In this document: in pieces, positions 5,295 through 20,510 of the stretch
How positions within the stretch are numbered: position 1 is the first letter of the stretch
Layout: the number at the start of each line of letters is the position of its first letter
Origin: Bdellovibrionota bacterium FG-2
Lineage (GTDB): Bacteria; Bdellovibrionota; UBA1018
Direction of reading: 5' to 3'
Assembly: GCA_051382305.1 (NCBI GenBank)
Contig: JBBCAV010000307.1
Coordinates: 1-20,510, forward strand
Length of the DNA stretch: 20,510 nucleotides
The notes under the pieces: generated by a model
The model's database searches: none
Seen by the model: the letters and a program-made list of their open reading frames with translations, nothing else
What the model was told of the DNA's origin: nothing
Position numbers and translations under genes: made by a program

Positions 5295-5991
5295 TCTCGG
5301 GAGCCATTATCTTTCTCGCATTGTTCTCGTCGGGGTCTTTCAGTCGAGTCCTACTACCATCGTTGAGCATGGGCGCTATTTCGCCGATCTTGCAAAAAGG
5401 CTGTCAGCCAGTGTTACTGTCGCTGAAGTCAGCGATTCGGCCCCCGCGGAGGTCCCCCGGCTAATTGTAAACTTTGAAAACATAACCTATGCTCTAGGGC
5501 TCGATCGAATCTCGGTAGCCGTGGTTCCTCGCGCCCCAGAAATGCCAGCTCCAGATGGTGATTTTAAGAATTGTATTTTGGAAGCGAGGCAGGAGATCCG
5601 TAAATTCGCGGAACAAGAATCCCTTGCGATCAGCTTCTGTGGTGTTTTAGTAACAGCAAGATGGCCTTTTTCGCTTCAGACACCAAACGAAGAGATCGCT
5701 GAGTTTCTGTGCCGAAAGTTACTGGGTGGAAAACGATTTGCCGAGGCAGTCGCCTCGTTTTCATTTCAGATTGGAAAAAAGGTTGGAGAATTCTTCGTCA
5801 ACTATCAAGCGCGTTCATTTGAGGTTAGGGCGGTCGCGGTTGACTCGTCGACACTAATGGAGCGTGGTGTGGAAATATTGTTCGACGTTAATAACAGGCC
5901 AAAGATCAATAAGGGCAATGTAGGGGATGAACTCTGTGCGCTGGAATCGGCTGCCCGGAGGGAACTAAACGCTTTGGTTCCCAGTCTCTAA
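5281..5991 (+). CDS. Hypothetical protein, TIGR04255-like; longer than the tracked ORF 5521-5991
   Basis: The frame is open from 5278: LKKTDLGSHYLSRIVLVGVF...DSAPAEVPRLIV...DRISV, continuing to ERGVEILFDVNN. Probable CTG start at 5281 after GGTGAG. Confidence 0.55.
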   Translation: MKKTDLGSHYLSRIVLVGVFQSSPTTIVEHGRYFADLAKRLSASVTVAEVSDSAPAEVPRLIVNFENITYALGLDRISVAVVPRAPEMPAPDGDFKNCILEARQEIRKFAEQESLAISFCGVLVTARWPFSLQTPNEEIAEFLCRKLLGGKRFAEAVASFSFQIGKKVGEFFVNYQARSFEVRAVAVDSSTLMERGVEILFDVNNRPKINKGNVGDELCALESAARRELNALVPSL

Positions 5992-6225
5992 AAATGCCGA
6001 AGCGTGATGCAGTAGGCGGTCGTCAGCCGCGAGCACGTCTTCTCTGATCCTCTTTAAGTCATTAAATAGGGCTCGGTCGTCCTCAAAATCAATATTTGAA
6101 CAAAGCGCGTTGTCCATGGCTGTATAGTTAAAAAAATCTCCAAAGGAAATCACAGCCGTAAAACCAGAAGTAAGTAAGTCCAAGGTCTTTGTGGGCGAAA
6201 CTTTGAAAAACCAACCCTTTTTCAC
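5965..6225 (-). CDS. Small hypothetical protein (86 aa)
   Basis: GGAGA-like RBS upstream on the minus strand. DDRALFNDLKRIREDVLAA looks like an amphipathic helix. Convergent overlap with the previous gene. Confidence 0.4.
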   Translation of the reverse strand: MKKGWFFKVSPTKTLDLLTSGFTAVISFGDFFNYTAMDNALCSNIDFEDDRALFNDLKRIREDVLAADDRLLHHASAFLETGNQSV

Positions 6226-6291
6226 TTCGGTCTTTCTCCAATCGGCTTAAATGGTCTCGGCTCCGCATTGTCCTTTTCAGCTTTGGGATGC

Positions 6292-6322
6292 AGAAACAAA
6301 ACAGGGAACCTTGCGGCTCCCT
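6292..6322 (-). terminator. Rho-independent terminator-like hairpin
   Basis: Minus strand reads AGGGAGCC-GCAA-GGTTCCCT then GTTTTGTTTCT. The GNRA loop and a G-U pair work only on the minus strand. Confidence 0.65.
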
Positions 6323-6629
6323 GGGGTTGTAACACTTGTTGCTTCCTATAAGGAACCACCAAGGGGTTATAAGTAACCACCTTTATACCTATCCTTCATT
6401 TGCTGTCTATCGTAACTTTTTTGCGCCGGGGTGCACGAATTAGCCCTTGAATGTTTGGGTGCGGCTTGGAGCATTTTTGAAGGATTTTGTGGCGCCAGGT
6501 TGAAAATATTACACGGCCTTTCGATGGCCGGGCATCCAGATCAATCATCCCCTGAATCCTTAAGTGAAAATACTGTGTAAATTCAAGGCGACAAATCAGG
6601 GCGGACCCCGCTTTCCGCTTGGATGCCTC

Positions 6630-6646
6630 TTGGTATAGCTGTTGCT
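6630..6646 (+). promoter_or_regulatory. Sigma54 (-24/-12) promoter of cassette 1
   Basis: TTGGTATAGCTGTTGCT has GG-N10-GC spacing with TTGC at -12, about 40 nt upstream of the precursor ATG. Confidence 0.75.
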
Positions 6647-6685
6647 ATGTGCACAGAGTCAAAAATGATGAAGGGGAGATACTTT

Positions 6686-6952
6686 ATGAAGAAAAATTTG
6701 ATTGGTTTTCCGTTTCTTGGTTTGGCTTTGGCGGCTTCGGTGTTCGCAGGAGAGAATCCTATGGGCAAGGCGCAAAGTCTGGAAAGTCGTGTGCGCTTGG
6801 AGCGGGGTTCTCAGAACCCACTGATTGTGGATCTAAGATCCCGGATCGAGGCGATCAATGAAATGAACGGCGAGAATGGAAAAACTTTTATCGACCTTGA
6901 CGCACTGGAAAAGGAAATGAGTCATTCAGGAGTTACTGTTTCATCGGGTTGA
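6686..6952 (+). CDS. Secreted peptide, putative RiPP/signal precursor (88 aa)
   Basis: AAGGGGAG RBS 7 nt before ATG 6686. Sec signal MKKNLIGFPFLGLALAASVFA. Tail EKEMSHSGVTVSSG is Ser/Thr-rich with no Cys. Directly upstream of a LanM-type dehydratase. Confidence 0.78.
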   Translation: MKKNLIGFPFLGLALAASVFAGENPMGKAQSLESRVRLERGSQNPLIVDLRSRIEAINEMNGENGKTFIDLDALEKEMSHSGVTVSSG

Positions 6953-6996: not shown

Positions 6997-8124
6997 GTGA
7001 CTAAAGAAATTTTAGGGGATTCGCATAATTTCGCACGTCGTGTTCAAAAATCAAACGATGGTAGCATTTCCAAGCCAAGGTGTTTGATTTGGGAAGAGTC
7101 GTTCTTGTCCAAAACAGGGAGAATTCGAGTCCTTATTGATTCGGTTTTTCAAAAGGCAAATCTGCCGTCCCCGATGAGGATGGCACCTGAATTGGAGTTC
7201 CAAGTGTTTTCTGACCCCTTTGTTTCTGGGGTAGTTGAATGCCTAGAGTTAGGGTTTGCCACCTATGAAGACTTGAGCCCAGAGCACTTGTCGCTTATTG
7301 GGGGCGTGATTGCGATCTGCACTTGGTTTGGGATTACAGATTTGCATGTCGACAATCTCGCATTTGGAAAAAATTTAACCCCCGGCGGCCAGGTTACCTT
7401 TTTTCCCATCGATATTGAGTGTATTTTTGAAAAGGTGATGCTCCCTTCGCAGACCAGCCTCGTCTCAAATCCTCACGCACTGAATGGGATTTTTGATAAG
7501 GCTGGTCTTTTTCAGTTAAGGGAACAGGGTGCCTGGGAGAATCCTCTAAACTTTGCTTCACTCCTTGATGGGTTCATGACCGCGATGGACTGCCTGGATA
7601 GTAACGCTCATACCATTTTTGAGTCACTATTGAAAATGAAGGAAGTGCAGGGGGCCCCTATTAGAGTAATTGCTCGTGCCACGAGGACCTATGTTGAATT
7701 GGGACAAGATCGTCATGCCCTACTGGAACCCTCACTTTTGCCTAGTGAGAGTGAGCAGCTTGATCGTGGAGATATTCCGTATTTTTTTAGGACGCTAACA
7801 TCTTCAGCGGTCTTTCATTATTCTTCTTTTGAGGGTGCGATTCAGGCCTCGGGTTGGACAAAAGACAAGAATGGGTATTTTGACGTGCCAGAGGTTTTCA
7901 TCAGCGATCATCTTGAAGGAAAGGTGGATTTGCAGGAATTTTCAAGAAGAAGGCATGCGGCGAGCGCCCTTCAACTTGTGCGATATTTTTCCCCAAAACT
8001 CCAAGGTGACAAATACAGTATTGGGAAAACTACGGTCTCGCTGTCTCATGAGATGATTCAGGTTCGCTATAGGGATCAACCACTATTTGAAACAAACCGA
8101 GCGCCTGTTTTGGAGTCGAAATGA
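6997..8124 (+). CDS. Stand-alone LanM-type dehydratase/kinase domain (DUF4135) without a LanC cyclase domain
   Basis: LanM N-domain motifs in order: GDSHN..R.V, KPR, TDLHVDN, PIDIECIF, IRVIARATRTY, EQLDRGDIPYF. Only 375 aa. Stop overlaps the next start (ATGA). Confidence 0.88.
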   Translation: MTKEILGDSHNFARRVQKSNDGSISKPRCLIWEESFLSKTGRIRVLIDSVFQKANLPSPMRMAPELEFQVFSDPFVSGVVECLELGFATYEDLSPEHLSLIGGVIAICTWFGITDLHVDNLAFGKNLTPGGQVTFFPIDIECIFEKVMLPSQTSLVSNPHALNGIFDKAGLFQLREQGAWENPLNFASLLDGFMTAMDCLDSNAHTIFESLLKMKEVQGAPIRVIARATRTYVELGQDRHALLEPSLLPSESEQLDRGDIPYFFRTLTSSAVFHYSSFEGAIQASGWTKDKNGYFDVPEVFISDHLEGKVDLQEFSRRRHAASALQLVRYFSPKLQGDKYSIGKTTVSLSHEMIQVRYRDQPLFETNRAPVLESK

Positions 8125-9647
8125 GGTCGCTTTTTCTTCTTCTCCTATTTTTTTCTATTAACAGTCTTGCATCTGAAATGAGGTCAGCGAAAATGCTAAA
8201 GCTTTCATCTTCTACCGCTTCTTTTGCTTTTGATCCGACTTTGGCCCGAGGTTATCAGCAGTTTATGCTGCTAGGACTGTTTTGCGATACTCTTGTACGG
8301 TTGGGAGAGTCTGGGGCCATTGAGGCTGGTATCGCCGAATCTTGGAAGTTTTCTCAAGGACCCGGCAGTCATCGGTTTACTTTCAAGCTCAATTCTCAGG
8401 CGCGATTTCATGATGGGCGTAAAATCAATGCTCGCGATGTTGCATGGAGTTTGTCGAGACATTTTTTTTCTAACTCGAGTTCTATCGTGAAAACGTATCT
8501 GGGGGGAGCCCTCAAGAACACTGCAATTTCTCCTTCCAAATTGCTTGAGGCGATTCAGGTGGAAGGTGATGATACTCTGAGTGTCGAGCTTAAGGGTCCT
8601 TATCAGCCTTTTCTGAGTATTTTGGCCTCGCCTGCGTTTTGTGTGTTGCCTCAAGATTTTGACATAAACAAGCCAGTGGGGTCGGGTCCATATTTGGTTG
8701 AGACGGCCTCAAAAGATGGCAAGACTCTTCTGACTTCTGCGCCCGGTTTTATTGGCAATCCCCCTTTCTTTGGACGGATTTCAGTTACAATACTTAAATT
8801 TAAGGATGAGATTTTGAATGCTTTTAAGAAGGGTGACATTGATTTTGCCTTGGGAATTCCATTTTCTGAGTTTAGAGAGGGAGATTTGCCTGCTGATGGA
8901 GCTTTTCAGCACGGAAATAGTCTTTCAATAACCAGCATTTTTTTGAATCTTAATCGTACCATGTTCAAGAGTCGGGATTTTAGAAAAGACTTGGCTGCAC
9001 TTTTCAATTTGGTGAAAAACTCTCCGGGTGCCATGAGTAGTTTTGATCGGTTGCAGACGAGTTTTTTGCCGATTGGTATCATGCCGCAGTCGTATTATGA
9101 GCGCTCTGCAATCAATATGAGCCCCGCCGCGTTTAAAAAGAAGTGGGTGGGGCAGATTCCTGCTGAATTGGATATCGTAATTGCGATGGGTTTTTGCACA
9201 CCTGAATACAAAACAGCGCTCGCTAGTGTTTTTGAACAGGCGGGCCTGAGTTATCGAATACGGGAACTCAAAGGTGAACCTTTGTTGCAGGCGATGTTTA
9301 AAGGCGATTATGATCTTGCTTTTGTTCCCTACGCGGGGCTTCTCCCGGATCCAGACGGATTTTTAGATCTACTCAGTCCTGAAGGGATCATGAAGGCGGG
9401 ACAGATCCCAAGTGCGAAGGTAATACAAGCGCTTGAAAAAGTTCGCTTTGAAAGTGATACTCAATTGCGGCTTAAGGGATATGAGGGGGTCCTCAAGCCC
9501 TTTGAAGAGGACTATTATCTTATTCCTATAGCGCAGCAAAATTTGCCCGTATTGTATCGGAAGGGTTTGCATGTGCCGGATTCTAAGTTTCGGTTTCATC
9601 TGGATTTGAGGGGGATACGATTGGAGAGTGGCAAGCCAAATGGCTAG
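8121..9647 (+). CDS. Family 5 (OppA/DppA-like) solute-binding protein, orphan
   Basis: Signal peptide. FDP, DTLVR..G.I..GIAESW, FTFKL...ARFHDG.KI.A.DV.WSL and PVGSGPY motifs. No permease or ATPase gene adjacent. Overlaps the kinase start. Confidence 0.9.
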   Translation: MRSLFLLLLFFSINSLASEMRSAKMLKLSSSTASFAFDPTLARGYQQFMLLGLFCDTLVRLGESGAIEAGIAESWKFSQGPGSHRFTFKLNSQARFHDGRKINARDVAWSLSRHFFSNSSSIVKTYLGGALKNTAISPSKLLEAIQVEGDDTLSVELKGPYQPFLSILASPAFCVLPQDFDINKPVGSGPYLVETASKDGKTLLTSAPGFIGNPPFFGRISVTILKFKDEILNAFKKGDIDFALGIPFSEFREGDLPADGAFQHGNSLSITSIFLNLNRTMFKSRDFRKDLAALFNLVKNSPGAMSSFDRLQTSFLPIGIMPQSYYERSAINMSPAAFKKKWVGQIPAELDIVIAMGFCTPEYKTALASVFEQAGLSYRIRELKGEPLLQAMFKGDYDLAFVPYAGLLPDPDGFLDLLSPEGIMKAGQIPSAKVIQALEKVRFESDTQLRLKGYEGVLKPFEEDYYLIPIAQQNLPVLYRKGLHVPDSKFRFHLDLRGIRLESGKPNG

Positions 9648-11523
9648 TATGGAAGTTCGATCTCAATCGCTCGCGCGATTTCTTTTTGGGCGCCTTATGC
9701 TTTGGCTGGGGCTGGGATTTATTTTCTTCGCCGTCGTTTCGAGTTTCTATCTGATTCGTTTGACTAGGCAAATTGCTCGAGAACGAGCCGAAGTTTCTCA
9801 ACATTGGTTTACGGCGGGAATTCGAGAGGATGTTTTGTCGGGGATTGATTCTTCGAGCTATCGCAAATGTGAAATGCTTTTTTCTGAGAAATCAGTTTTG
9901 CGGGTCGAAGTCAAAACTTCAGATCGCGTGATATGTAGTCTTGAGAAGCCTAAGTGGGACCGGGGGATAGCCATAGATACGAGTGTTTTTTTTGATAGGC
10001 AGGAGAAAAATAAGGCTGCAACTCTGACTGTTTTTTACGATCAGTCTTTTGTGACGGAGTTGCTAGAGAAGATGCTGGTCTTTTTTGTGATCGTTCTTTT
10101 GCTTTTTCTTCCTGTATTTTATCTGTTGGTTCGTAGAGTAGATCGGGTTCTTTCGAGGCCGGTATCGATATTGGCGAATCGCTTCAAAGAAGGTTTGCCC
10201 GAATTCAGTGTCCCGGAAAAAGCGGAACTTGCACAGTCTGAGATAACTGAAATTCGGGATATTCTTGGAAGTTTCTTGGGTGCCTATTCTCGAATTCAAG
10301 CTTTTCAAGATCAGGCTCTCAGAGATGCGGCGTCAAGAAGTTTGGCCGCCATCGCCACCCAAGTCTCCCACGACATCCGCTCCCCCCTTGCTGCATTGAT
10401 CTCTGTTGCCCACAACAGCCCTGGTCTCCCGGAGGACTCACGCGTGCAGCTCAGAGAAGCCGCGAATCGAATTCGCGATATTGCGAATCAGCTTTTGGAA
10501 AAGAACCGCGAAAAGAAGCAGGAGAAACGCAATGTCTCAGCAGGCGCAGAGGGCCACGCGTCCGAAGATCCTCACTCCGGCGCCGGAGGCGCAGCGCGTC
10601 TTGATGGCATGTCCACCGAAGATCGCTCCACCCAGCTCCTCTCCGCCATCCTCGAGTCCGCTATCTCCTCAAAACGCCTGCAATACGCCGATAACCCACA
10701 AATCAAAATCGAATCACATACCGAGGATAGCGACTCTGCCTACGGACTTTTTGCGACACTTCAGTCGACCGAATTCTCACGCGTGGTTTCGAACCTAATC
10801 AACAACGCGGTCGAAGCTTTTGGTGAAGCGCCCATGCCCTCAAAAAAACCCGGGCGCGTCGACGTTTTCCTTCGAGACGAGCAGGGCAACGCTGTGATTG
10901 AGGTCCGCGATAACGGCAAGGGAATTCCCCCGCACCTTTTGGCAAAAATTGGCGGGCAGGGTGAGACTCATGGCAAGGCGGGCGGCTCGGGCTTGGGCGT
11001 GTATCACGCGAAGAAAACGATCGAAGCGTGGGGGGGCCGGCTTGAGATTGAGTCGCGAGAAGGCCCAAATGAAAACCAGGGCACGACGGTGCGAATGAAA
11101 CTGCCGAAAGCGGCGGCGCCCGGGTGGTTTGCGCCGAAGATTCCGGTGGAGGGGATACGAACCATTGTCGTTTTGGACGACGATCCAGGCATTCACAAAA
11201 TTTGGGAGGGGCGGTTGGCGGCGCGTGTGGGGTCGCGAGAACAGGTGGTCGTGCTGCATTTTTATTCCGCGCAAGAGATTCTTAAATGGTATCGCTCGAG
11301 CCTGGGCATGGGCGAAGCTGGCGATAACCCGCTGTATCTTTGTGATTATGAGCTGGTGGGTTCAAAAGAAACGGGCCTCGACGTTATTGAAAAGTTGGGC
11401 ATAGCTCCGCAAAGCATTTTGGTGACCAGTCGCTACGATGAACCCGCCATTCAAGAACGCTGCGTGCGGTTTGGGGCAAAGCTGTTGCCCAAGGGACTGG
11501 CGCATCGGGTGCCGCTGGGGTGA
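9628..11523 (+). CDS. Membrane hybrid sensor histidine kinase (2 TM, HisKA, HATPase_c, C-terminal receiver-like domain)
   Basis: Two TM helices flank a short periplasmic domain. H-box QVSHDIRSPL, N-box NLINNAVEA, DNGKGI, GSGLGV. Receiver-like VVLDDD...LCDYEL...GLDVIE...LVTSR. Exact start may be 9640 or 9649. Confidence 0.93.
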   Translation: MASQMASMEVRSQSLARFLFGRLMLWLGLGFIFFAVVSSFYLIRLTRQIARERAEVSQHWFTAGIREDVLSGIDSSSYRKCEMLFSEKSVLRVEVKTSDRVICSLEKPKWDRGIAIDTSVFFDRQEKNKAATLTVFYDQSFVTELLEKMLVFFVIVLLLFLPVFYLLVRRVDRVLSRPVSILANRFKEGLPEFSVPEKAELAQSEITEIRDILGSFLGAYSRIQAFQDQALRDAASRSLAAIATQVSHDIRSPLAALISVAHNSPGLPEDSRVQLREAANRIRDIANQLLEKNREKKQEKRNVSAGAEGHASEDPHSGAGGAARLDGMSTEDRSTQLLSAILESAISSKRLQYADNPQIKIESHTEDSDSAYGLFATLQSTEFSRVVSNLINNAVEAFGEAPMPSKKPGRVDVFLRDEQGNAVIEVRDNGKGIPPHLLAKIGGQGETHGKAGGSGLGVYHAKKTIEAWGGRLEIESREGPNENQGTTVRMKLPKAAAPGWFAPKIPVEGIRTIVVLDDDPGIHKIWEGRLAARVGSREQVVVLHFYSAQEILKWYRSSLGMGEAGDNPLYLCDYELVGSKETGLDVIEKLGIAPQSILVTSRYDEPAIQERCVRFGAKLLPKGLAHRVPLG

Positions 11524-12011: not shown

Positions 12012-12334
12012 GGGTGGCAAGCATGAGAGAAGCAAAGCTAAATCGTCGAGGAATTTAGGAGTGGAAACGGTAGGTAGGTGTTGTTCAACAAGCGGCTCCC
12101 GGTTAGCACAAGGCTTGCATCTTGTGTCGTTACGTGAGTTTAGCGTAAATGTGAGGTGACGATTGCCGTCAAAGTGTCTAAAGTTTTGACGATTATGGAG
12201 GTATTAGTTCTTTACTTGAGTTCTTGCGAATAGGGACCGATAATGGATTGTGGGCAAGGTAGCCCCGGTTCTTAAAGTTTTGGCTTGCAATGTTATTGGT
12301 GACGACCTAATACTTGGCTAGAAAGTTTGATTAT

Positions 12335-12394
12335 CACCCCTGGTGCTTCGGTGCCAGGGTGCGAAGCCGCCGAAAGGCGGCTTCTGCGTTTTTT
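12335..12394 (+). ncRNA. Structured RNA leader upstream of the NYN gene (two tetraloop hairpins plus U-tract)
   Basis: CACCCCTGGTGC-TTCG-GTGCCAGGGTG (cUUCGg loop, G-U pairs), then GAAGCCGCC-GAAA-GGCGGCTTC, then T6 immediately before the ATG at 12395. Confidence 0.6.
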
Positions 12395-13033
12395 ATGAGC
12401 AAGAAATTCAAAACGATTGTCTACATAGATGGGTTCAATCTTTATTACGGATGCCTCAAAGGTACTCCGTATCGCTGGCTCAATCTTAGAACGATGGTTG
12501 AAAAAATTCTTCCCAAGAATGAAATTGTTCAAATTAAGTACTTTACTGCTCAGGTGAGCGGTTCTGTGGATGATCCAGATAAGCCACAAAGACAGCTCAC
12601 TTACCAGCGCGCACTTAAGACCATACCAAATCTCGAAATTTACAAGGGGCAGTTTCTGAGTCATCCCGGCTGGAGACCTTTGGCCGATGGAGGCAAGATG
12701 GTCAGAGTTATGTTGACTCAGGAAAAAGGATCAGACGTGAATTTGGCTACTCATGTTTTGGCCGACGCATTTGATAGGAAATTTGACGCGGCTACCATTG
12801 TTAGCAATGACTCAGACCTTAAGGCTCCGTTGGTACTCGTGAGGGATCGATTTAAAAAAGGTGTGGTTTGGATCAATCCTCATTCGGAGAATCCTGATTC
12901 GAAACCCAGCGGTGAGCTGAATCAGGTTGCCTCGATCAAACGAGGAGTTTTTGAAGAGACCTTGAAGGTGAGCCAGTTTTCGACAGAGATGAGTGATGCG
13001 AAAGGGCTCTTTCATAAACCGAAAGGCTGGTAG
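12395..13033 (+). CDS. NYN domain (LabA/DUF88, PIN-like) ribonuclease
   Basis: VYIDGFNLYYG, IKYFTA, QEKGSDVNLA, IVSNDSDL. Start moved to ATG 12395 because the tracked N-terminal extension runs through the hairpins. Confidence 0.92.
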   Translation: MSKKFKTIVYIDGFNLYYGCLKGTPYRWLNLRTMVEKILPKNEIVQIKYFTAQVSGSVDDPDKPQRQLTYQRALKTIPNLEIYKGQFLSHPGWRPLADGGKMVRVMLTQEKGSDVNLATHVLADAFDRKFDAATIVSNDSDLKAPLVLVRDRFKKGVVWINPHSENPDSKPSGELNQVASIKRGVFEETLKVSQFSTEMSDAKGLFHKPKGW

Positions 13034-13040
13034 GGCGTGA

Positions 13041-13627
13041 GCTCTCGGGCGCAGGCATAGTTTTTTATTCCTCATCTGCTTGTATGTATCCCGAGCACAA
13101 TCAATTGGATCCTAACAACCCCAAGTGCTCCGAAGACTCCGCCTATCCCGCCGCACCCGACAGCGAATACGGCTGGGAGAAGTTGTTCAGCTTTGGCCCT
13201 GAAGGGACCTGGAAAGGGGGCAAGGAAAAAGCTCCTGCTGCTTTGTCGCGTAAAATCGCAGGGGCTGCCGATGGCGATGAAATCGAAATTTGGCAATAAG
13301 TAAGAATCAATCACGGGAAACAAACCCGCTCGTTTCTGTATATTGAAGAGTGCTTAGAGGGCGTTCGCCGTTTGATGAATTCGGATTTCACAGGCCCTGT
13401 CAACATCGGCTCCGAATGGATGGTCAGCGTTTTTGAATTTAGGGCTTTGTTGAAATGATTATGAAAAGCGCTGGGAGTCACGATTGAGAGTAAGCCGGGT
13501 CCAGTGGGAGTGCGCGGACGCACTTCGGATAATGCACCGAAGAGTGCAATGATTTGTAAAAAACATAACCGGGCACCTTCGATGCTGTATAAGTGGATCA
13601 AGGGGCAGATGGCGAAGGGGTGAGTGG
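13041..13627 (+). pseudogene. Decayed GDP-mannose 3,5-epimerase-like fragment, repeat copy B (longest)
   Basis: Long near-identical stretches shared with 11539-12011. Retains EHNQLDPNNPKCSEDSAYP. In-frame stop after EIEIWQ. Confidence 0.85.
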
Positions 13628-14347
13628 CGGGTTTGGCGGGTTTAATTTGTAACTAGCGCCACGCCCGGCTTTTGCTGAAGCCGCAAAAACACCTTTTTTT
13701 ACTAACAATTGAAGCTCTCTTGACGCCGTCCGCTCGGAAACGGATCCAAGGGTTTGATAATCGCTATTCGTGATTTGACCATTTTTGCGAACGAACTCAA
13801 TTGCATGGATCTGACGCTCATTTAACCCAAGTTTATCCAGCTGTTCCTTTGACCACTGTTCCCGCCGAAAAATTACGCGAAACCGCGAATGCATGCTGAT
13901 GTCAAATTCAGGAACGGGCAATTGCGACGCACGCATTATCTCTACCATCCGGACAGTTCCTGATCCCCATCGTTCAATTAGCCCAGTATTAAAAAACGCT
14001 TCTGCAATCTTGTCGTTGCGGGGGACGGAGTCATGATCCTGCAATAGGTTCTTGGGTGAAAGCGACGGAGGGAGCGTTCCTGGGTTCCAAATCTCGAGCC
14101 GATCATCGTACAACCGAATTTGAATATTGCCGCGTTCGTTATAGTCGCGATGACAGACCGCATTCAGTAACGCTTCTCGAATTGCATCCAAGGGGTACTC
14201 CCAAATCACCTCTCGGCGCGGTTCCCCTTTGATCGCAAACTCCGTTTTGAAACCAACTATCTCTCTCAGAATGGTGATGTGTCTGCGTCTGGTTTGGAGG
14301 GCAACGAAAAAAGACTCCTGATTTTTAGGCAGGAAGAGCATTTTCAT
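13598..14347 (-). pseudogene. 5'-truncated ATP-binding/RecG C-terminal (HATPase_c_4) plus winged-HTH protein
   Basis: EYPLDAIREALLNAVCHRDY, DDRLEIWNPG, PRN..IA, IERWGSG and a C-terminal HTH (ITNSDY..VSERTASRELQ). The N-terminal domain usual in this family (often AlbA_2/Schlafen) is absent. Confidence 0.75.
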
Positions 14348-14587
14348 ATTTTCTTGGAGCGCATTCGAAAAACTTCTTTTCAGCGTGCGGGCGATTTACT
14401 GCCGGTGCCGAAAACGGTGGTTGATTGTGAGCTGCCAGGGCCGTGGTCCAAATATGCGACAGTGTGGCGTGTGATGTATAAGTTGCTTACGGAGCGGTAT
14501 CTCGAGGCAGATGATTTCTTCTTCTTTTAGGGCTGCCCACATAAAGGTAATGATATCAGTGGATTAGTTTTTTAGGATTGATTTTTG

Positions 14588-14624
14588 TTGTAGTTTAAAT
14601 ACAATTATTGTAATATAAATACAA
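14588..14624. promoter_or_regulatory. Tandem palindromic operators TTGTA-N7-TACAA (x2)
   Basis: TTGTAGTTTAAATACAA (14588-14604) and TTGTAATATAAATACAA (14608-14624) lie just before the RBS of the XRE gene. Confidence 0.75.
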
Positions 14625-14641
14625 CAGAGAGGTGGTCTGTA

Positions 14642-15013
14642 GTGCCAGGCAAAACATTTGGGACATTTTTCAGAGCGCAGCGGATGAAGCGCAAGCTCAC
14701 GTTACGCAAATTTTGTGAAGATCACGAATTTGATCCTGGGAACATTTCAAAAATTGAGCGGGATCTGTTTAGTGCTCCTCAATCTGATGAAAAGCTCCGA
14801 GAATATGCCAATGCGCTGTTGCTTGTAGAGGGATCGGATGACTGGGTTGAATTTTTTGATCTTGCCTCTGTCTCAAACAAGACGGTAGGCATCGGTAGAA
14901 TCAGCGATGAAACGCTCCTGAGAAAATTGCCCGTTCTGTTTAGGACCCTTGAAAATAAGGAGCTGACAGAAGAAAAGTTAGATCAGTTGATTGAGTTGAT
15001 TCGTAGGTCTTGA
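14642..15013 (+). CDS. XRE-family HTH transcriptional regulator
   Basis: FG.FFRAQRMKRKLTLRKFC...DPGNISKIER HTH signature. GAGG RBS. Confidence 0.88.
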   Translation: MPGKTFGTFFRAQRMKRKLTLRKFCEDHEFDPGNISKIERDLFSAPQSDEKLREYANALLLVEGSDDWVEFFDLASVSNKTVGIGRISDETLLRKLPVLFRTLENKELTEEKLDQLIELIRRS

Positions 15014-15017
15014 AAGT

Positions 15018-15602
15018 ATGACGTCGTTCCTGACTTCCGCTGACATCGACAAGGCCGTGAATGCGTTTTTGCAGAAGTTTCACCCGAGTCGGTCGATCCC
15101 CATCCCCGTAGAAGAGATAATCGAAACTGAAATTGGCGCTGCAATCACAACGATTCGCGGTCTTATGGACGAACTCAGCATAGACGGCTTTTTTTCAAAC
15201 ACCTTTGATGAATTGTTTATAGATTACCACATTTTTATGAATAGAACGCCTAGGGCTCGGTTTACATTTGCACACGAATTGGGCCATTTCTGGCTGCATT
15301 ACGATTACGTCACTGGACAAGAAATTCCCTCCACTCAGTTCTGGAAGCAAATGAAGATGGAGCAGCAGAACCAAGATCACTCGCGCTTCGAAGTTCAGGC
15401 GAATATGTTCGGTGCGCAGCTGCTTATGCCCAAAAAAGAAATACTTCGGGAGTTTAGCCGTATCAAGAAGGCTTACGAAATAAAGGCAAAACAAACCTTT
15501 CCTGATGCAGTCATCGCTCCGTATGTCGCAAAAGAGGTTGCCAAAATATTCATGGTCTCCGAAGAATCTGCCGCGTATCGGTTAAAGGATTTTTTCAAAT
15601 GA
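15018..15602 (+). CDS. ImmA/IrrE family metallo-endopeptidase (Peptidase M78/DUF955)
   Basis: IPIPVEEI, RARFTFAHELGH (HExxH), EVQANMFGAQLLMP, F.VS..AAYRL. Confidence 0.92.
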   Translation: MTSFLTSADIDKAVNAFLQKFHPSRSIPIPVEEIIETEIGAAITTIRGLMDELSIDGFFSNTFDELFIDYHIFMNRTPRARFTFAHELGHFWLHYDYVTGQEIPSTQFWKQMKMEQQNQDHSRFEVQANMFGAQLLMPKKEILREFSRIKKAYEIKAKQTFPDAVIAPYVAKEVAKIFMVSEESAAYRLKDFFK

Positions 15603-15674
15603 GCTGGCAGAAAGTTATTCGGTCATACGCGCCGATCAGGAAATTGAATTTAGGTTGAGAAATGGAGTGAGAGA

Positions 15675-15870
15675 CTCCGAATGGATGGTCAGTGTTTTTG
15701 AACCTAGGGGCTTTGCCGAAATGATCATGAAGATTGCGGAGAAGAAGGTGACGATTAAGAATATTCCGGGTCCGGTGGGAGTGCGCGGACGTACGTCGGA
15801 TAATGCCCCGAAGAGTGCAATGATTCGCAAGAAGCTTGGCTGGGCACCTTCGATGCCGCGGGCGGGGTGA
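15675..15870 (+). pseudogene. Right-half copy C of the epimerase-derived repeat
   Basis: ctccgaatggatggtcag...ccgggtccggtgggagtgcgcggacg...KKLGWAPSMP matches the 3' halves of copies A and B. Confidence 0.82.
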
Positions 15871-15873
15871 GGG

Positions 15874-16105
15874 CTAAGGGTGAACTTCGAGAGGGAGCCT
15901 GGAAAGAATTTCAGAGAAGACTATTTCGGCGATACTGATTGCTATTTGAACTTCACTTTCTTCGATTTCATCGGAAAAACCAGGGTAGCGAGTGGTTGCG
16001 GCGTAGGGATTCAAACAAACGGCCTCGTCAATGAGTTCAGTGAGAGTCGCGTCTTTCTTGAGAGCTAGATCACCATGATAGCTGTCCCCGAGGATCAAGC
16101 GGCAT
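15874..16105 (-). pseudogene. HEPN domain toxin with an internal deletion
   Basis: ATG at 16105 (MPLDP...) overlaps the MNT stop. The C-terminal LNPYAATTRYPG...AISIAE is in another frame, and the central helices are missing. Confidence 0.7.
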
Positions 16106-16412
16106 AGAACTCTTTTCCTTCGTGGATCGCGGTTTCTGGCAACGATCTGATGACTGATTTTCTTTACTCAAATTTTTGCTCGCTAAAGATAATGACGCCA
16201 ATAGGAGCAGGGATGCCTCTGAGGGCGCTACGATAAGTGCGCTGGGCCAATCGATACCCGGGGGCGTCGGCTGTTGGCGTGATTTCAATCACGATCACAA
16301 GGATGTCGTAGTCACTGTTCGCGGAGCCCTCGCCCCGCGCACGCGAGCCAAAAAGAAACACACGTTTGGGGTGAAACTCTGCCACGAGCCAGCCAGGTGG
16401 CGTCAAGTGCAT
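16095..16412 (-). pseudogene. Minimal nucleotidyltransferase (MNT) antitoxin with a premature stop
   Basis: FLFGSRARG...NSDYDILVIV. An in-frame TAA at 16164-16166 is followed by the typical tail RKSVIRSLPETAIHEGKEFYAA* ending at 16095. Confidence 0.8.
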
Positions 16413-16463
16413 AAGCAGGGAAGCTGAGGCCGTGCTATAGTAGGTTCAAGATAGGAGTTTTCT

Positions 16464-16790
16464 ATGGCAAAAGCAGAGATCAAGTTTCCGAAAAAAGGTG
16501 CCGTCTCCAAACTCAGGCAGATGAATAATAGCATGAGACATCAGCCCGTTTCGCCTGAACTGGTGGAATCGCTGAAGAAACGTCCAGAGAAGAATCTCCA
16601 AAGGAGATTGCTACATCGAAGCGTAAGCAGGAACCTAATCTGGGACTCTGAAGGGGCGGTTGGGGTGAAGAAAGGATTCTGTGAGTTAGCGTCTTTCCTT
16701 GCGGCCCATTCGGGAGCGCGCCGGGGCTGTCTCGTGGATCATTTTAGCGCACCCGAATCGTTTTGTCTTTCTTCCCGATCGCTTGCTTGA
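16464..16790 (+). CDS. Small basic hypothetical protein
   Basis: Strong AGGAG RBS before the ATG. No family recognised, and the C-terminal half is doubtful. Confidence 0.4.
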   Translation: MAKAEIKFPKKGAVSKLRQMNNSMRHQPVSPELVESLKKRPEKNLQRRLLHRSVSRNLIWDSEGAVGVKKGFCELASFLAAHSGARRGCLVDHFSAPESFCLSSRSLA

Positions 16791-16810
16791 AGAGGGGTGA
16801 ACTCAGAACT

Positions 16811-17788
16811 ATGAAGATCAGAAACGTTTTACGTTCGCTTCTTGGCGTGACGAACCGCGATCTCAATGAGGCAATTCAAGCGGAGCAAGCAGAAGGGGCT
16901 GCATTCGAACGTTTGCTTTTCCCCATCGCGTGTCTCAAAGATTTTTACCTGATTCAGTTTTATAAGATGACCGATAGAGGAAGGGCGATTGCTGGTTTGG
17001 GCGCAGATTGGGATGAAAAACACGCTTATCGCAAAGCGGTATTTGAATATTTCGAGCGTAAGGCGGTCATTTCGCTAGGTCCCAGCCTTGGCTTCGATTC
17101 AACTAACGGCGTTGGTGCCCACCGATATCCGGCTTTGGCTTTTCGTGCCGGCATGAATGAACTTTTTGAAAGAGATTCATTTTTGCGACATTGGTATTCT
17201 AAGACCCCTTTTTCTAAGATTGAGGGTTCTCTCACATCCTCAAATCGAGTCTGGGTCGACGACATGGATCAGCGAGGATACAGGACCCTGTTCTGCAAGA
17301 CTCATCTTGGTTTTCTCGCCACTACCCTCGTTTTCTTGATCGACCGCAAAACCGGCGGTTTTGCGCTCGGGCTCTCTAGTGGACGGGGAGGGGAGGAAGA
17401 TGCTCAAAAGGCTTTCATGGAGGCTGCGACCAATTTGTTTTTTGGAAATGAGGGGAAGCAAAATGAGGAATTGATCTCTCGGGTTAAGGTCCATGGGATC
17501 ACGTCACTCATTGATCATCGGACCAATTGGCTCTTAATTAATCCGGTTCCCAGCTGGGTACTTTCTCTTGTCGAATCTACCGATCAGCAAATCAGAGTTG
17601 GCAAATTGAGGGACCCGAAAGTGGAGCGCGTAACCCTCGCGATGGCGCCAGTGCCGGTTGTGGGCGCTCGATGCGAAGATTCTTTGAATTTGGTGCTTGG
17701 ACTACCCAACGAACGTGACCTCGCTATACTTCGGCGATCCCAACTTCATCCTATCGACGACGATTTTGTTCCGCATCCAATCCCATAA
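16811..17788 (+). CDS. ycaO: Stand-alone YcaO-family protein (azoline-forming type C-terminus)
   Basis: KAVFEYFER, STNGVGAH...NELFERDS (ATP-binding motifs), KAFMEA, and the Pro-rich C-terminus VPHPIP. Alternative TTG start at 16763. Confidence 0.9.
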   Translation: MKIRNVLRSLLGVTNRDLNEAIQAEQAEGAAFERLLFPIACLKDFYLIQFYKMTDRGRAIAGLGADWDEKHAYRKAVFEYFERKAVISLGPSLGFDSTNGVGAHRYPALAFRAGMNELFERDSFLRHWYSKTPFSKIEGSLTSSNRVWVDDMDQRGYRTLFCKTHLGFLATTLVFLIDRKTGGFALGLSSGRGGEEDAQKAFMEAATNLFFGNEGKQNEELISRVKVHGITSLIDHRTNWLLINPVPSWVLSLVESTDQQIRVGKLRDPKVERVTLAMAPVPVVGARCEDSLNLVLGLPNERDLAILRRSQLHPIDDDFVPHPIP

Positions 17789-17911
17789 TGCATAGTGACA
17801 AGTTGGCGCTTTTTTGTAAAATATACATACTGCCAATGTCCGGATTTTTGGATCAAAAATGTAACCAGCTATTATTACAAATGAACAAATGTTTTTTTAT
17901 CGTGCCGAGGT

Positions 17912-17928
17912 TTGGCCCATACCTTGCG
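17912..17928 (+). promoter_or_regulatory. Sigma54 (-24/-12) promoter of cassette 2
   Basis: TTGGCCCATACCTTGCG has GG-N10-GC spacing with TGGC and TTGC, about 115 nt upstream of the precursor ATG. Confidence 0.68.
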
Positions 17929-18044
17929 TCAATGCGACGACGCAATCGCATATAAATGTTTTGAGCATTTTAGTGTGGTATTGACAAAACTGATAAAACT
18001 ATGGACGCTCGGTATGTCGGCGTTCGAAAAATGAGGGATTGTAT

Positions 18045-18203
18045 ATGAAGAAGATGCTTTTCGTTGCTTTGGCAGTATTGGCTACACTGACTGAGTTCCT
18101 ATTGGCCCGGGGATTCAAAGTCGAGGAATACAAAAGTTCTACAAAAGAGAGCCACATAGCCCGGGATGGGACTTCTACTTGTCGAAGCGTACGTGGTGGG
18201 TGA
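18045..18203 (+). CDS. Unannotated 52-aa signal-peptide-bearing putative RiPP precursor
   Basis: Hand translation: MKKMLFVALAVLATLTEFLLARGFKVEEYKSSTKESHIARDGTSTCRSVRGG*. GAGGG RBS. The stop overlaps an in-frame GTG of the SBP gene (GTGA 18200-18203). Confidence 0.8.
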   Translation: MKKMLFVALAVLATLTEFLLARGFKVEEYKSSTKESHIARDGTSTCRSVRGG

Positions 18204-19714
18204 TCGTTCCTAAGCATAAGTCTAGAATTGCTGTCTTAGGGGTATTTCTCATGGCTTTGAATCAAAGCACACCAATAGAAGCAAGCGTCTCTCTTGCCAA
18301 TCGTGAACCTGAGATTCGGGTGGACCAAAAGCCAACCTTGCCGATGGATCCTATCAGGATTCAGTCTATGGCGGATTACGATCTGCAGTTGTGCCTTTAC
18401 CGCACTTGGTTTGAGTACGATTCGTCTCGAAAGGCAAAGTCGGGAATTGTCTCAGAGTGGTCTTTTGATTCCAAAAGGGGGGTATATCGCTTTACGATAG
18501 CTCAAGATTCCAAGTGGTCAGACGGGAGTCCTGTTCTATCCGGGCAGTTATTGAAAAACCTTAAACGGGCGGTTGCACTTAAGACCACCTTTGGCGAAGC
18601 AGTCCAAGGATTGATCAAGCTTGAAAATGCAAAAGCACTTGATGATCGTAATTTTGAGTTAGAAACTCGAGATCATCAACCTTCTGAGAAATTTTTTCAA
18701 CGAATGGGCTCGAGCTTTCTTGCCCCGGTAAATCCTGACGATTGGGACAAAGACTTTCTTCTTAAAAGTAATCGTCTGACCAGCGGTCCTTATAGAATTG
18801 TTGCAAGTGATGCTCAAGAGCTCAAATTGGAGGCGAATCCAAATGACAAGACTTCGCCGAAAACTCGTCCACTGACTGTTGCCATTCGGTTTCAGCCTGT
18901 CACGGATTTAGCCGCCTTTGTCGAAGGAAAGTCCTGGGCAAATGTGTTGCAGACAGCAACTTTGATGCCCAGCCAACTTGCGGAAAAAGTGAAGAACCGA
19001 AACCTCCCGTATTGGACACGTGGTTTTGATCGTGTATCAAGACTAATGCCCGTAGGGGCGGGAAAAGTACTCGAGGGCCGGAGGAAGTTAGCTTTAGCAT
19101 TTGGCGCTGTGTGGGCCGATTTCAAGGTTTCCTCTTTGCCTTTCAATTCGAGGAAAGCCAATAGCCTCCAGCCCCCGGGCTATCCACTTTTGACTGAGTT
19201 GGATTTTCGCTCTTTTCTAAAAAATGGAGCGGAAAAACTGAAACGATCTGTAAAAATTGTCGCTTTAACTTCTCCTCAGAATGATTTTCAATCGCCGCTT
19301 ATCTTAGCGGCTTTTCAAACCCTTGGGATTCAAGTTACGTGGGTATGGGCAAAATCTTTTGCCGAGTTAGACAATTTAGTTTTACAGGATCTGACTATTG
19401 ATTTTCAATTAGGAAGCTTTGGTGTCGCCGATCCTGAACCAACGACTTGGATGGGCCTAATTCTGACGGAAAACTCCCCATTTGTAGAAGTAACTGCTTC
19501 AGATCTCTCCACATTCAAGAGAATTGCCGCGATCCCCTCGAAAGAGGAGGAAGTTAAGAAATTTCAATTGCTCTTAAGGGAAATGGGGTTGCGCGGGAGC
19601 TATGTTCCCTTATTTCATTTTTCCACTCTGTCATTGGGACAACCGGGTATCAGTTTTGAAAATGTTCAGGAACTTGATGAAACTGTCGACTATTCGAAAC
19701 TCATTGTTAAGTAA
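18200..19714 (+). CDS. Family 5 solute-binding protein, orphan
   Basis: MDP, SGIVSEW, YRFTI...KWSDGSPV, TSGPYRI, YVPLFH. GTG 18200 preferred over TTG 18179. No permease or ATPase adjacent. Confidence 0.88.
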   Translation: MIVPKHKSRIAVLGVFLMALNQSTPIEASVSLANREPEIRVDQKPTLPMDPIRIQSMADYDLQLCLYRTWFEYDSSRKAKSGIVSEWSFDSKRGVYRFTIAQDSKWSDGSPVLSGQLLKNLKRAVALKTTFGEAVQGLIKLENAKALDDRNFELETRDHQPSEKFFQRMGSSFLAPVNPDDWDKDFLLKSNRLTSGPYRIVASDAQELKLEANPNDKTSPKTRPLTVAIRFQPVTDLAAFVEGKSWANVLQTATLMPSQLAEKVKNRNLPYWTRGFDRVSRLMPVGAGKVLEGRRKLALAFGAVWADFKVSSLPFNSRKANSLQPPGYPLLTELDFRSFLKNGAEKLKRSVKIVALTSPQNDFQSPLILAAFQTLGIQVTWVWAKSFAELDNLVLQDLTIDFQLGSFGVADPEPTTWMGLILTENSPFVEVTASDLSTFKRIAAIPSKEEEVKKFQLLLREMGLRGSYVPLFHFSTLSLGQPGISFENVQELDETVDYSKLIVK

Positions 19715-20510
19715 GAACCTTTTTCGCCACGGGCTTTTGCTTGGGTTGCTTTTTTGGTTGGGGGCTCAAATCCCTTTCACGCTTGTTGTGAGTCAGTATT
19801 TTTTCCATCAGGAAATCGCAGCGGACCTTTCGCAACAGGCCTCACTTCAAAAATTACTGACTGAACTTTATGAACAAGGTGCTCGATTTGGAGATATCGT
19901 AAATGCCAGAGGCGCAGTTCTCAAGTTTGGTGCACCCTTTGGCCTCAAAGACTTAGGCGTTTGCCGGAACGGCCGGGAAATCTTGCCTCGACCCTTGGAA
20001 TCTCGTTGTAAGAGTGAGCCTAGACAATGGGTTCCTGTTCAGACTTCTGCGGGAAGGATTGATCTTGAGTTTCAATGGACCCCTCCGTCGATTTCTGACC
20101 ACAGTATTCCCCTTCGTGCAATCGGTGGCAGCGCGATGCTCAGTCTATTTCTGGTTCTTGGGGTGGTCATTCTGCTTAGCAGGAAGCTTTCCACTTTAGT
20201 CTCTAAGCTTGCTGGTCAAATTGCTTCATCCCGATCCTTAGATACCTTGACGCAATTATCCTCAGAGCTCGAAGAACTTACACCTATCAGCTCCGCCCTA
20301 CATATTGCCAAGACTCAGTTAAATGAGTCTTTAAATGAAAATCTGAAACTGAAAACAGAAGTCGCGGTCGGTAATCTCGCCACCCAAGTCTCCCACGACA
20401 TTCCGATCCCCCCTTGCTGCATTGATCTCCGTCGCCCACAACAGCCCTGGTCTCCCGGAGGATTCACGCGTGCAGCTCAGAGAGGCCGCGAATCGGATAC
20501 GCGATATTGC
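19704..20510 (+). CDS. Second membrane sensor histidine kinase (partial, runs off the window; +1 frameshift near 20402)
   Basis: Hand translation from TTG 19704: MLSKNLFRHGLLLGLLFWLGAQIPFTLVV (TM1)...AMLSLFLVLGVVILL (TM2)...LATQVSHDI, then RSPLAALISVAHNSPGLPEDSRVQLREAANRIRDI after removing one base. Confidence 0.88.
   Translation, partial: MLSKNLFRHGLLLGLLFWLGAQIPFTLVVSQYFFHQEIAADLSQQASLQKLLTELYEQGARFGDIVNARGAVLKFGAPFGLKDLGVCRNGREILPRPLESRCKSEPRQWVPVQTSAGRIDLEFQWTPPSISDHSIPLRAIGGSAMLSLFLVLGVVILLSRKLSTLVSKLAGQIASSRSLDTLTQLSSELEELTPISSALHIAKTQLNESLNENLKLKTEVAVGNLATQVSHDIPIPPCCIDLRRPQQPWSPGGFTRAAQRGRESDTRYC
20377..20510 (+). repeat. Near-identical copy of 10352-10484 (HisKA coding region)
   Basis: Manual alignment gives about 7 substitutions, all synonymous, plus 1 inserted base in about 133 bp. 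No similarity is visible upstream of tcgccacccaagtc. Confidence 0.92.

Follow-up and report, generated by a model that had tools for sequence, protein, structure and literature searches.

A stand-alone mini-YcaO encoded with a single-cysteine peptide, a solute-binding protein, and a sensor kinase in Bdellovibrionota bacterium FG-2: a possible modified-peptide signaling module

The DNA analyzed here (the window) is one entire contig (C307, 20,510 bp) from the draft genome of Bdellovibrionota bacterium FG-2, an assembly of 433 contigs that is 85% complete. Four genes lie on its plus strand between 16.8 and 20.5 kb, encoding a small YcaO enzyme, a 52-amino-acid (aa) open reading frame (ORF), a family-5 solute-binding protein (SBP), and the 5′ part of a histidine kinase. 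Our preferred reading, to which we give a probability of roughly 0.58, is that the YcaO works independently of partner proteins and forms a thiazoline from Thr-Cys in a peptide exported by Sec, and that the SBP-kinase pair would then sense this peptide. The four genes are as follows:

16811..17788, plus strand: mini-YcaO gene, ATG to stop, 325 aa, without a partner domain and with the C-terminus PHPIP (PF02624, AlphaFold2 model, Foldseek)
18045..18203, plus strand: putative precursor/signal peptide gene, 52 aa (pN/pS, occurrence in 17 of 17 loci, alignment A2, predicted docking)
18200..19714, plus strand: family-5 (OppA/NikA-type) SBP (Pfam SBP_bac_5 at 1.1e-15)
19662..20510, plus strand: sensor histidine kinase, 5′ part, ended by the contig end (tblastn; topology from the translation)

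The small ORF, which runs from an ATG at 18045 to a TGA at 18203 and lies 256 nt behind the YcaO stop codon, encodes the peptide MKKMLFVALAVLATLTEFLLARGFKVEEYKSSTKESHIARDGTSTCRSVRGG, and a GAGGG sequence is located 8 nt 5′ of its ATG. Residues 1 to 21 of the peptide resemble a signal peptide, residues 22 to 38 (FKVEEYKSSTKES) constitute a predicted recognition stretch, residues 39 to 46 form the core ARDGTSTC, and residues 47 to 52 are a variable tail. The only Cys is residue 46 (codon 18180-18182). A paralogous cassette in the same genome (L002, contig C271) encodes a YcaO that is 76% identical and an SBP that is 74% identical, and it holds a 50-aa ORF at the matching position. A comparison of codons 1 to 46 shows 33 base differences between these small ORFs, with 24 at third positions. 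The ratio of nonsynonymous to synonymous differences (pN/pS) was 0.10 in the reading frame, whereas the remaining frames gave 1.59 and 3.93; for the flanking genes, it was 0.23 (YcaO) and 0.20 (SBP) in the same comparison. The small ORF is a real gene under purifying selection.

Relatives of the cassette were taken from species genomes (10 of 18 loci kept, L004 to L013) and from metagenomes (6 of 14 loci kept, L022 to L027). The 16 loci set aside (L014 to L021 and L028 to L035) matched the YcaO core only at an E value of 1e-8 or weaker and represent other YcaO families. L024, whose contig ends inside the YcaO gene, was left out of the downstream counts, and the distant paralogue L003/L064 was handled separately. 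This resulted in 17 loci with readable downstream DNA (the window, L002, L004 to L013, L022, L023, and L025 to L027), and every one of them carries a small ORF between the YcaO gene and the next gene. In the alignment of the 17 peptides (A2), Met1 and the Cys (C46) are invariant, T45 is kept in at least 90% of the sequences, and the residue before the Cys is Thr in 16 peptides and Ser in L013. The consensus reads K-x-x-T ... G-x-G-T-x-T-C. The Cys is found at position 44 to 49 in 16/17 peptides and at position 57 in L013, which carries an insertion. The hidden 52-aa precursor with a single Cys that had been proposed from the window alone (here termed the original prediction) was thus confirmed as a gene, and the similar small ORFs that it had suggested looking for beside homologous YcaOs are present throughout.

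The region behind the Cys is far less uniform, spanning 2 to 73 residues among the 17 peptides. Seven of them (L005 to L008 and L025 to L027) carry C-terminal extensions of 43 to 73 residues, most with a similar helical pattern. The L025 precursor (844-1203) contains the core twice (VAGDGTGTCIQGK in both copies), followed by a long helical tail; this duplication resembles the multicore precursors of ribosomally made peptides with posttranslational modifications (RiPPs). At the other end, a hydrophobic 10-residue stretch with a mean hydropathy of at least 2.17 begins within the first 9 residues in 17/17 peptides, and a Lys or Arg is found within residues 1 to 6 in 15/17. The L027 peptide contains a lipobox-like VVGC. 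Signal cleavage may occur after LLA21. Judged by these sequence features, the 52-aa peptide looks Sec-exported and not simply like a cytoplasmic precursor. Searches of Pfam and NCBIfam gave only subthreshold N-terminal matches for it (LPAM_1 at 13 bits; NprX at 15 bits versus a cutoff of 75), and seven related small ORFs had no Pfam match. An amidine-cyclized product, which had been considered originally, is unlikely, because the signal-like N-terminus leaves no free amine near the core. The ORF at 16464-16790 had been put forward as an alternative substrate; it belongs to no Pfam or NCBIfam family and has no counterpart in the other loci (best tblastn match elsewhere, E 0.21), and this role was rejected.

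The SBP encoded next to the peptide shows weak matches to the OppA and NikA models of NCBIfam and possesses an N-terminal signal or anchor of its own. Its probable start codon, GTG at 18200-18202, overlaps the TGA of the peptide gene at 18201-18203 (GTGA), and TTG at 18179 is an alternative. A homologous SBP gene lies 3′ of the small ORF in 16/17 loci; in the remaining one, L022, the contig stops 149 bp past the small ORF. Pfam scans revealed no permease or ABC ATPase in the window. The kinase fragment, which covers the first ~280 residues before the contig ends, overlaps the SBP gene at the latter's 3′ end. Its topology comprises a first transmembrane helix (TM1), a loop of ~105 aa, and TM2, followed by a coiled coil and the H-box SHDI; its start is approximate, since ATG codons at 19602, 19662, and 19677 are all possible. 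In tblastn, the kinase ORF of the window matched genes with HisKA and HATPase_c domains that lie directly behind the SBP gene of 8 other loci.

Among the 13 loci that reach at least 600 bp beyond the SBP gene, 12 have a kinase there. Nine of these kinases were recognized by tblastn (including that of the window), two are hybrid kinases found by Pfam (L011 and L013), and the one of L027 was assigned from an H-box read in an open-ended ORF. The exception is L010, where IS66 genes take the place of the kinase. Genes beyond the four-gene unit are unrelated between loci. Of 301 genomes sampled evenly across the phylum, 24 contained a mini-YcaO at an E value of 1e-20 or better. Among 25 loci fetched from this sample, 24 showed an SBP or kinase hit adjacent to the YcaO gene, with the gene orders YcaO-SBP or SBP-YcaO-kinase. 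Linkage to SBP-kinase pairs had been named beforehand as a point on which the idea could fail, and it holds (SBP in 16/17 and kinase in 12/13 loci). We consider it very probable that the four-gene module is a functional unit.

The assignment of the enzyme agrees between sequence and structure. Homologues share the same Met as the ATG at 16811, and PF02624 scored 41.3 bits (cutoff, 25.7; E 1.5e-10), with the match confined to the central 115 residues (95 to 209). An AlphaFold2 model built on 24 homologues reached a mean predicted local distance difference test score (pLDDT) of 92.1 and a predicted template modeling score (pTM) of 0.89, and every Foldseek match listed through rank 41 is a YcaO structure (TMq 0.39 to 0.60). 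These include LynD (TMq 0.60), Methanocaldococcus jannaschii YcaO, E. coli YcaO, MusD, TruD, and McbD. When the family profile was compared by sequence with solved structures, McbD alone was matched (E 0.0083), and the alignment places McbD residues T148, E167, and E170 on T98, E117, and E120 of the family. T98 is located in a nearly invariant S-T-N-G turn of the family alignment (A1), in which E117, E120, R121, D122, E204, and H322 are invariant and E79 and E82 are conserved in at least 90% of the rows. In McbD, E167 coordinates Mg2+, T148 projects into the active site, and the substitutions T148A and E167A reduce activity (PMC6395948).

The C-terminus of the window YcaO reads VPHPIP. PHPIP ends 20 of the 24 rows of A1, [H/Y]HPIP ends three, and PHFVA ends one, the distant paralogue L003. 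The free C-terminal proline of McbD occupies a pocket of the active site and is important for catalysis (PMC6395948), and PxPxP has been called the canonical motif of azoline-forming YcaOs (bioRxiv 10.1101/2025.07.11.664356). The original description as a stand-alone YcaO of about 325 aa with a PxPxP C-terminus is therefore correct as to length, family, fold, and ending. The Pro-rich tail that it took as an azoline hallmark is kept in strict form in the window and the close PHPIP subfamily and is infrequent in the wider mini-YcaO family considered below.

Pfam scans of the 25 window ORFs revealed no E1-like/ocin-ThiF protein, TfuA, or SagB-type dehydrogenase, as had been noted originally, and none of these partner types is found among ten flanking proteins from four related loci. 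The statement could be extended to the whole genome (85% complete), which gave zero matches to PF07812 (TfuA), TIGR03605, and TIGR03603, while a control genome did yield a match in the PF07812 search. Because the genome is 85% complete, absence of the partner enzymes from it is not proven. The E1-like/ocin-ThiF partner with a RiPP recognition element (RRE), which azoline-forming cyclodehydratases usually, though not universally, have, was thus not found, nor was the adjacent TfuA gene that characterizes thioamide-forming YcaO-TfuA pairs. The same gene content bears on the possibility that the cassette yields an antimicrobial linear azoline peptide, a bacteriocin, with the SBP-kinase pair acting in regulation or immunity. 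These bacteria are predators, and most characterized azol(in)e RiPPs are antibiotics. The precursor, however, offers at most one heterocycle site, neither the window nor four neighborhoods yielded a dehydrogenase, ABC exporter, protease, or immunity gene, and Sec export would deliver the peptide into the periplasm of the producer itself. We consider a bacteriocin very improbable.

To model the complex, the YcaO alignment was combined with the peptide alignment for residues 22 to 52, using three runs and three controls. The interface score ipSAE was 0.71, 0.70, and 0.72 in the three runs, compared to 0.01 for the best control. That mark is passed by 58/80 solved complexes and 2/110 mismatched pairs, a calibration that is only rough here, since custom alignments were used. 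The runs share at least 91% of their contacts, and the pLDDT of the partner is at least 71. In the model, peptide residues 32 to 36 (S-T-K-E-S, including the conserved Thr33) pair with β-strand 31-36 of YcaO, and F24 to K30 lie on helices 15-22 and 69-74. Residues 37 to 48, including T45 and C46, contact E79, E82, R83, residues 95 to 99 (S-T-N-G), 207 to 215, and 232 to 237, and I324-P325. The prediction supports binding of the peptide to YcaO with the core in the active site. A leader that is read by the N-terminus of YcaO itself would explain how the enzyme could function without an RRE-bearing partner. In the LynD and McbBCD complexes, by comparison, the leader is bound by a distinct domain or subunit (PMC6395948), whereas here the N-terminus of the catalytic domain is predicted to do so.

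On this basis, the peptide is probably the substrate of YcaO. A different assignment would make the small exported protein an accessory or ligand of the SBP-kinase pair and let YcaO modify the SBP, the kinase, a housekeeping protein, or some other protein. There is precedent in E. coli, where YcaO modifies a ribosomal protein and not a RiPP (PMC13063428), and some of the distant cassettes described below have small ORFs that lack Cys. This assignment is nevertheless quite improbable, given that the predicted docking puts the core into the active site while all three controls stay at or below 0.01, that the Cys lies at a constant distance from the N-terminus, that the core is duplicated in one locus, and that the small ORF always directly adjoins the YcaO gene in the PHPIP subfamily.

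In the mechanism that we propose, the 52-aa peptide would be synthesized in the cytoplasm, where the stand-alone YcaO would bind residues 22 to 38 via its own N-terminal helices and β-strand 31-36, with no need for an E1-like or RRE partner. The enzyme would thread ARDGTSTC into its ATP/Mg site and activate the Thr45-Cys46 amide, and the Cys46 thiol would close a thiazoline with a loss of 18 Da. The ring would remain an azoline, because no dehydrogenase is present. The peptide would then be exported by Sec, with removal of the signal peptide perhaps after Ala21, and captured by the OppA-like SBP in the periplasm or after release and reentry. The SBP, lacking a transporter of its own, would report to the adjacent kinase through the periplasmic loop of ~105 aa. 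Cell density, an autocrine state, a metal-loaded or oxidized peptide, or prey contact could be the content of such a signal. Export, thiazoline formation, SBP binding, and kinase response are all steps that we infer; taken singly, formation of the thiazoline at T-C is about an even bet, and we would give similar odds to sensing of the peptide by the SBP-kinase pair.

Several observations weigh against this reading, and a first group concerns the chemistry. The TIGR03604 model for SagD-type thiazole/oxazole maturases gave 43.4 bits, far under its cutoff of 219.25; since PF02624 passes and TIGR03604 fails, the protein is a YcaO but lies outside the curated thiazole/oxazole maturase family. The closest fold among the Foldseek matches listed is that of a thioamide-forming enzyme, the TfuA-independent YcaO of Methanopyrus kandleri (6ci7_A, E 8.8e-10). 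Outside the close subfamily, the proline-rich ending is infrequent. A profile search of 1.84 billion representative proteins returned 84 clusters at an E value of 1e-30 or better and 778 at 1e-10 or better, and the best 150 clusters listed are mostly 300 to 360 aa long, the shorter ones resembling fragments. Given this many clusters, the family of mini-YcaOs is sizeable, and the PHPIP subfamily makes up one of its branches. The tail of the wider family is mostly PH[F/P/C][I/V]x, and strict PxPxP ends only 27/146 full-length members.

The distant cassettes add to these reservations. In six of them (L044, L047, L048, L050, L049, and L062), the small ORF does still end in G-x-[S/T]-C followed by 1 to 3 residues. 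Small ORFs without Cys are found in L042/L064, L043, L052, and L059, and L045, L046, and L051, out of 15 loci read, have no small ORF with a hydrophobic N-terminus. One Cys-less case comes from the same genome as the window: a third cassette on contig C133 (L003/L064) encodes a 362-aa YcaO that is 20% identical and ends in PHFVA, followed by a Cys-less 121-aa ORF whose N-terminus is hydrophobic and by an SBP. A genome of the same genus (L042) encodes a YcaO that is 97.5% identical to the one of L003/L064. If the Cys-less cassettes are active, the chemistry of the family cannot be thiazoline formation alone.

These data bear on the possibility that the same module and substrate involve another YcaO chemistry at or near T-C, namely, a thioamide, a MusD-like cut of the variable tail, or a Ser/Thr oxazoline. 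Besides the fold of the top structural match among those listed and the low TIGR03604 score, such chemistry would suit the post-Cys tails, which vary as if dispensable, and the Gly/Ser/Thr-rich end that some distant cassettes keep without a Cys. MusD, a YcaO-like protein, hydrolyzes C-terminal residues with ATP (PMC10885120). The invariant residue, on the other hand, is a Cys, the natural nucleophile of cyclodehydration; a substrate Cys is not needed for thioamidation, the enzyme has the PxPxP tail, and the genome, as far as it is complete, has no TfuA. Furthermore, the substrates of MusD already bear azoles (PMC10885120). Another chemistry is therefore unlikely in our view, while it is the alternative that we take most seriously.

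A second group of reservations concerns docking, export, and sensing. The docking result may partly reflect likeness, because solved YcaO-peptide complexes exist (LynD, McbBCD, and M. jannaschii YcaO). A Sec signal peptide competes in time with modification in the cytoplasm, and 31 residues make a long product for an OppA-type pocket. The window shows no response regulator; any such gene, like the catalytic part of the kinase, lies past the contig end. The kinase copy of the window may not signal at all, because it has a frameshift at the H-box and the gene runs off the contig: just past the His codon of the H-box, at ~20401-20404, the frame shifts by +1, and the next frame reads RSPLAALISVAHNSPGLPEDSRVQLREAANRIRDI, whose RSPLAAL... 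is the canonical H-box continuation. The only public run listed as containing this stretch, X1, is probably the source sample, and no RNA data set was listed. In X1, a 1,383-nt contig matches the kinase form of the window, and an 82-nt contig is one letter shorter at 20401; the depth of X1 climbs six-fold at the contig end, from ~10 to 60. The shift could be a real frameshift that makes the copy a pseudogene, or it could have arisen in assembly, from paralogous kinase genes that became tangled where the contig ends.

The nature of the SBP and the export of the peptide also bear on a metal- or redox-related function, in which the peptide would be a bufferin-like periplasmic metal/redox peptide and the NikA/OppA-type SBP and the kinase would monitor its loaded state. 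Bufferins, which are RiPPs exported by Sec, bind periplasmic copper through heterocycles derived from Cys (PMC11626156). The weak matches of the SBP to both OppA and NikA models fit this idea, as does the lone Cys within a Gly/Thr/Ser-rich loop. In one locus, L027 (211-2802), a TonB-dependent receptor gene is located directly 5′ of YcaO. That receptor is confined to this single locus, the peptide has one heterocyclizable Cys and no His- or Cys-rich site, and no metal-resistance genes were found in the window or in the neighborhoods examined. We therefore regard this function as improbable and retain signaling by a thiazoline peptide as the preferred reading.

The proposed enzyme shares with McbD, LynD/TruD, and BalhD the YcaO fold, the aligned Glu pair and Thr, the PxPxP ending with a free Pro, and a candidate Thr-Cys substrate. 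Unlike these, it has only 325 aa, and no E1-like/ocin-ThiF/RRE partner or dehydrogenase was found for it in the searches given above. The systems built around azoline cyclodehydratases differ further from the present one, which has a single conserved site, a precursor with a signal-peptide-like start, and an SBP and kinase in place of an exporter or immunity gene. The minimal YcaOs of methanogens (M. kandleri and M. jannaschii) are the best structural matches listed (6ci7 and 6pe3). They are small and act without a recognizable partner (PMC5589413). They thioamidate a large enzyme subunit (the McrA thioglycine), in contrast to the present system, and they lack a neighboring SBP, kinase, or small ORF. 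MusD (7u58, rank 34 in Foldseek) has the YcaO fold and acts at the C-terminal region of a peptide (PMC10885120), but it is a 651-aa protein of a cyanobactin pathway, and we saw no evidence of cleavage here.

With bufferins (BufA, the multinuclear nonheme iron-dependent oxidative [MNIO] enzyme BufB, and the partner BufC), the module would have in common a Sec signal peptide, conversion of Cys to a heterocycle in the cytoplasm, and a periplasmic product (PMC11626156). The bufferin enzyme is an iron oxidase that forms a thiooxazole, whereas here an ATP-dependent YcaO would form a thiazoline, and the excerpts of the bufferin paper mention no SBP or kinase (PMC11626156). On the receptor side, LuxP-LuxQ, TorT-TorS, and CBP-ChiS are examples of sensor kinases that depend on an SBP. 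As in those systems, a gene for a binding protein without a transporter adjoins that of a membrane kinase with a periplasmic loop; the difference is that the presumed ligand is here encoded in the operon together with its own modifying enzyme. Activation of a sensor kinase by an SBP encoded beside it is a known principle (PMC11113362, PMC8050422).

A pheromone circuit of Gram-positive bacteria provides a further comparison: the AgrD thiolactone is sensed by the kinase AgrC. Both there and, putatively, here, one locus encodes a histidine kinase and the peptide that it senses, which is ribosomal, contains a reactive Cys, and undergoes processing and export. The present system would differ from AgrD-AgrC by its Gram-negative hosts, YcaO chemistry, Sec export, and an OppA-like binding protein.

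The module joins two known kinds, a YcaO-type RiPP enzyme and an SBP-dependent two-component sensor, in a combination that looks undescribed. A search of the full-text literature, whose coverage excluded supplements and most subscription journals, yielded no report of YcaO linkage to an SBP and a kinase, and it found no YcaO substrate with a Sec signal peptide and no description of YcaOs from Bdellovibrio-like taxa. Similarity-network tables of YcaOs in supplements (e.g., of PMC13063428), which lie outside that coverage, may list the mini-YcaO family. What the window newly contributes is the YcaO-first gene order, the PHPIP subfamily with its G-x-G-T-x-T-C core, the selection test between paralogues, and the controlled docking. 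If the proposed mechanism is true, the enzyme would be the smallest self-sufficient azoline-type YcaO, with leader recognition inside the catalytic domain, which would be useful for enzymology and peptide engineering. The peptide would be a second kind of Sec-exported RiPP, after bufferins, and the module would provide a modified ribosomal peptide signal and its receptor in Gram-negative Bdellovibrio-like bacteria, where peptide signaling is hardly known. Since the module is compact (four genes and one predicted modification site), the hypothesis is directly testable, and the many paralogous and variant cassettes provide a series of naturally matched peptides, enzymes, and receptors.

A second, parallel cassette is located on the same contig at 6623-11523 of the plus strand. 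Its small ORF (6623/6686-6952) has a signal-peptide-like start (MKKNLIGFPFLGLALAASVFA...) and the C-terminus SHSGVTVSSG. The next gene (6997-8124) encodes a stand-alone 375-aa DUF4135 protein (Pfam, 40.6 bits) that resembles part of the LanM N-terminal domain, and it is followed by genes for an SBP_bac_5 protein (8121-9647) and a histidine kinase (9628-11523). The family of stand-alone DUF4135 proteins gave 92 hits, Fluviispira and Silvanigrella among them. This arrangement suggests that differing peptide-modifying enzymes plug into one shared scheme of exported peptide, SBP, and kinase, and the presence of the DUF4135 unit on the same contig hints at a family of modified-peptide communication channels. 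A broader claim, that the module represents a new class of signaling RiPPs in Gram-negative predators, with a pheromone-like peptide, a self-sufficient 325-aa YcaO, Sec export, and an OppA-like receptor with a kinase as one of several interchangeable units, is one that we put forward tentatively, as rather doubtful for now.

The spacer between the YcaO gene and the small ORF holds two further features:

17795..17822, plus strand: promoter-like site GTGACA-16 nt-TAAAAT, just 3′ of the YcaO stop codon; a candidate only
17908..17999, plus strand: intergenic block common to both paralogous cassettes (alignment A3), holding an inverted repeat

The promoter-like site agrees with the consensus at 10/12 positions, and both hexamers are largely kept in L002 and L022. 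A promoter/terminator scan of 16400-18300 returned 3 sites (1.9 expected), a count that did not exceed that of its shuffles. Between the paralogous cassettes, the block shows higher conservation than its surroundings. Its inverted repeat consists of TTGCGTC (17924-17930), 8 nt, and GACGCAA (17939-17945) and reads TTGCGTT ... AACGCAA in L002, so that both arms have changed and the repeat is kept. Neither L022 nor L004 shows the block, which may serve as the operator of a regulator. Its RNA fold is not significant (z -1.68; 13/200 shuffles fold as well), and Rfam had no match anywhere in the window.

Upstream of YcaO, the region 12314-16412 contains a series of defense- or mobile-type genes. They encode an NYN-domain protein (12314-13033), a protein with a RecG C-terminal-like HATPase_c_4 domain (13598-14347, minus strand), a pair of a helix-turn-helix protein and an M78/IrrE peptidase (14642-15602), and a pair of HEPN and nucleotidyltransferase proteins (15874-16412, minus strand). 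The YcaO cassette may sit in a variable island. Transposase genes adjoin the cassette elsewhere. In L010, a locus from a metagenome-assembled genome of Chryseolinea outside the phylum, it is flanked by a DDE_Tnp_1 transposase gene upstream (89-1216) and IS66 genes downstream (4324-6686), and the L002 cassette begins right after what we take to be a transposase-like fragment (2-217). These transposase neighbors hint at horizontal movement of the cassette.

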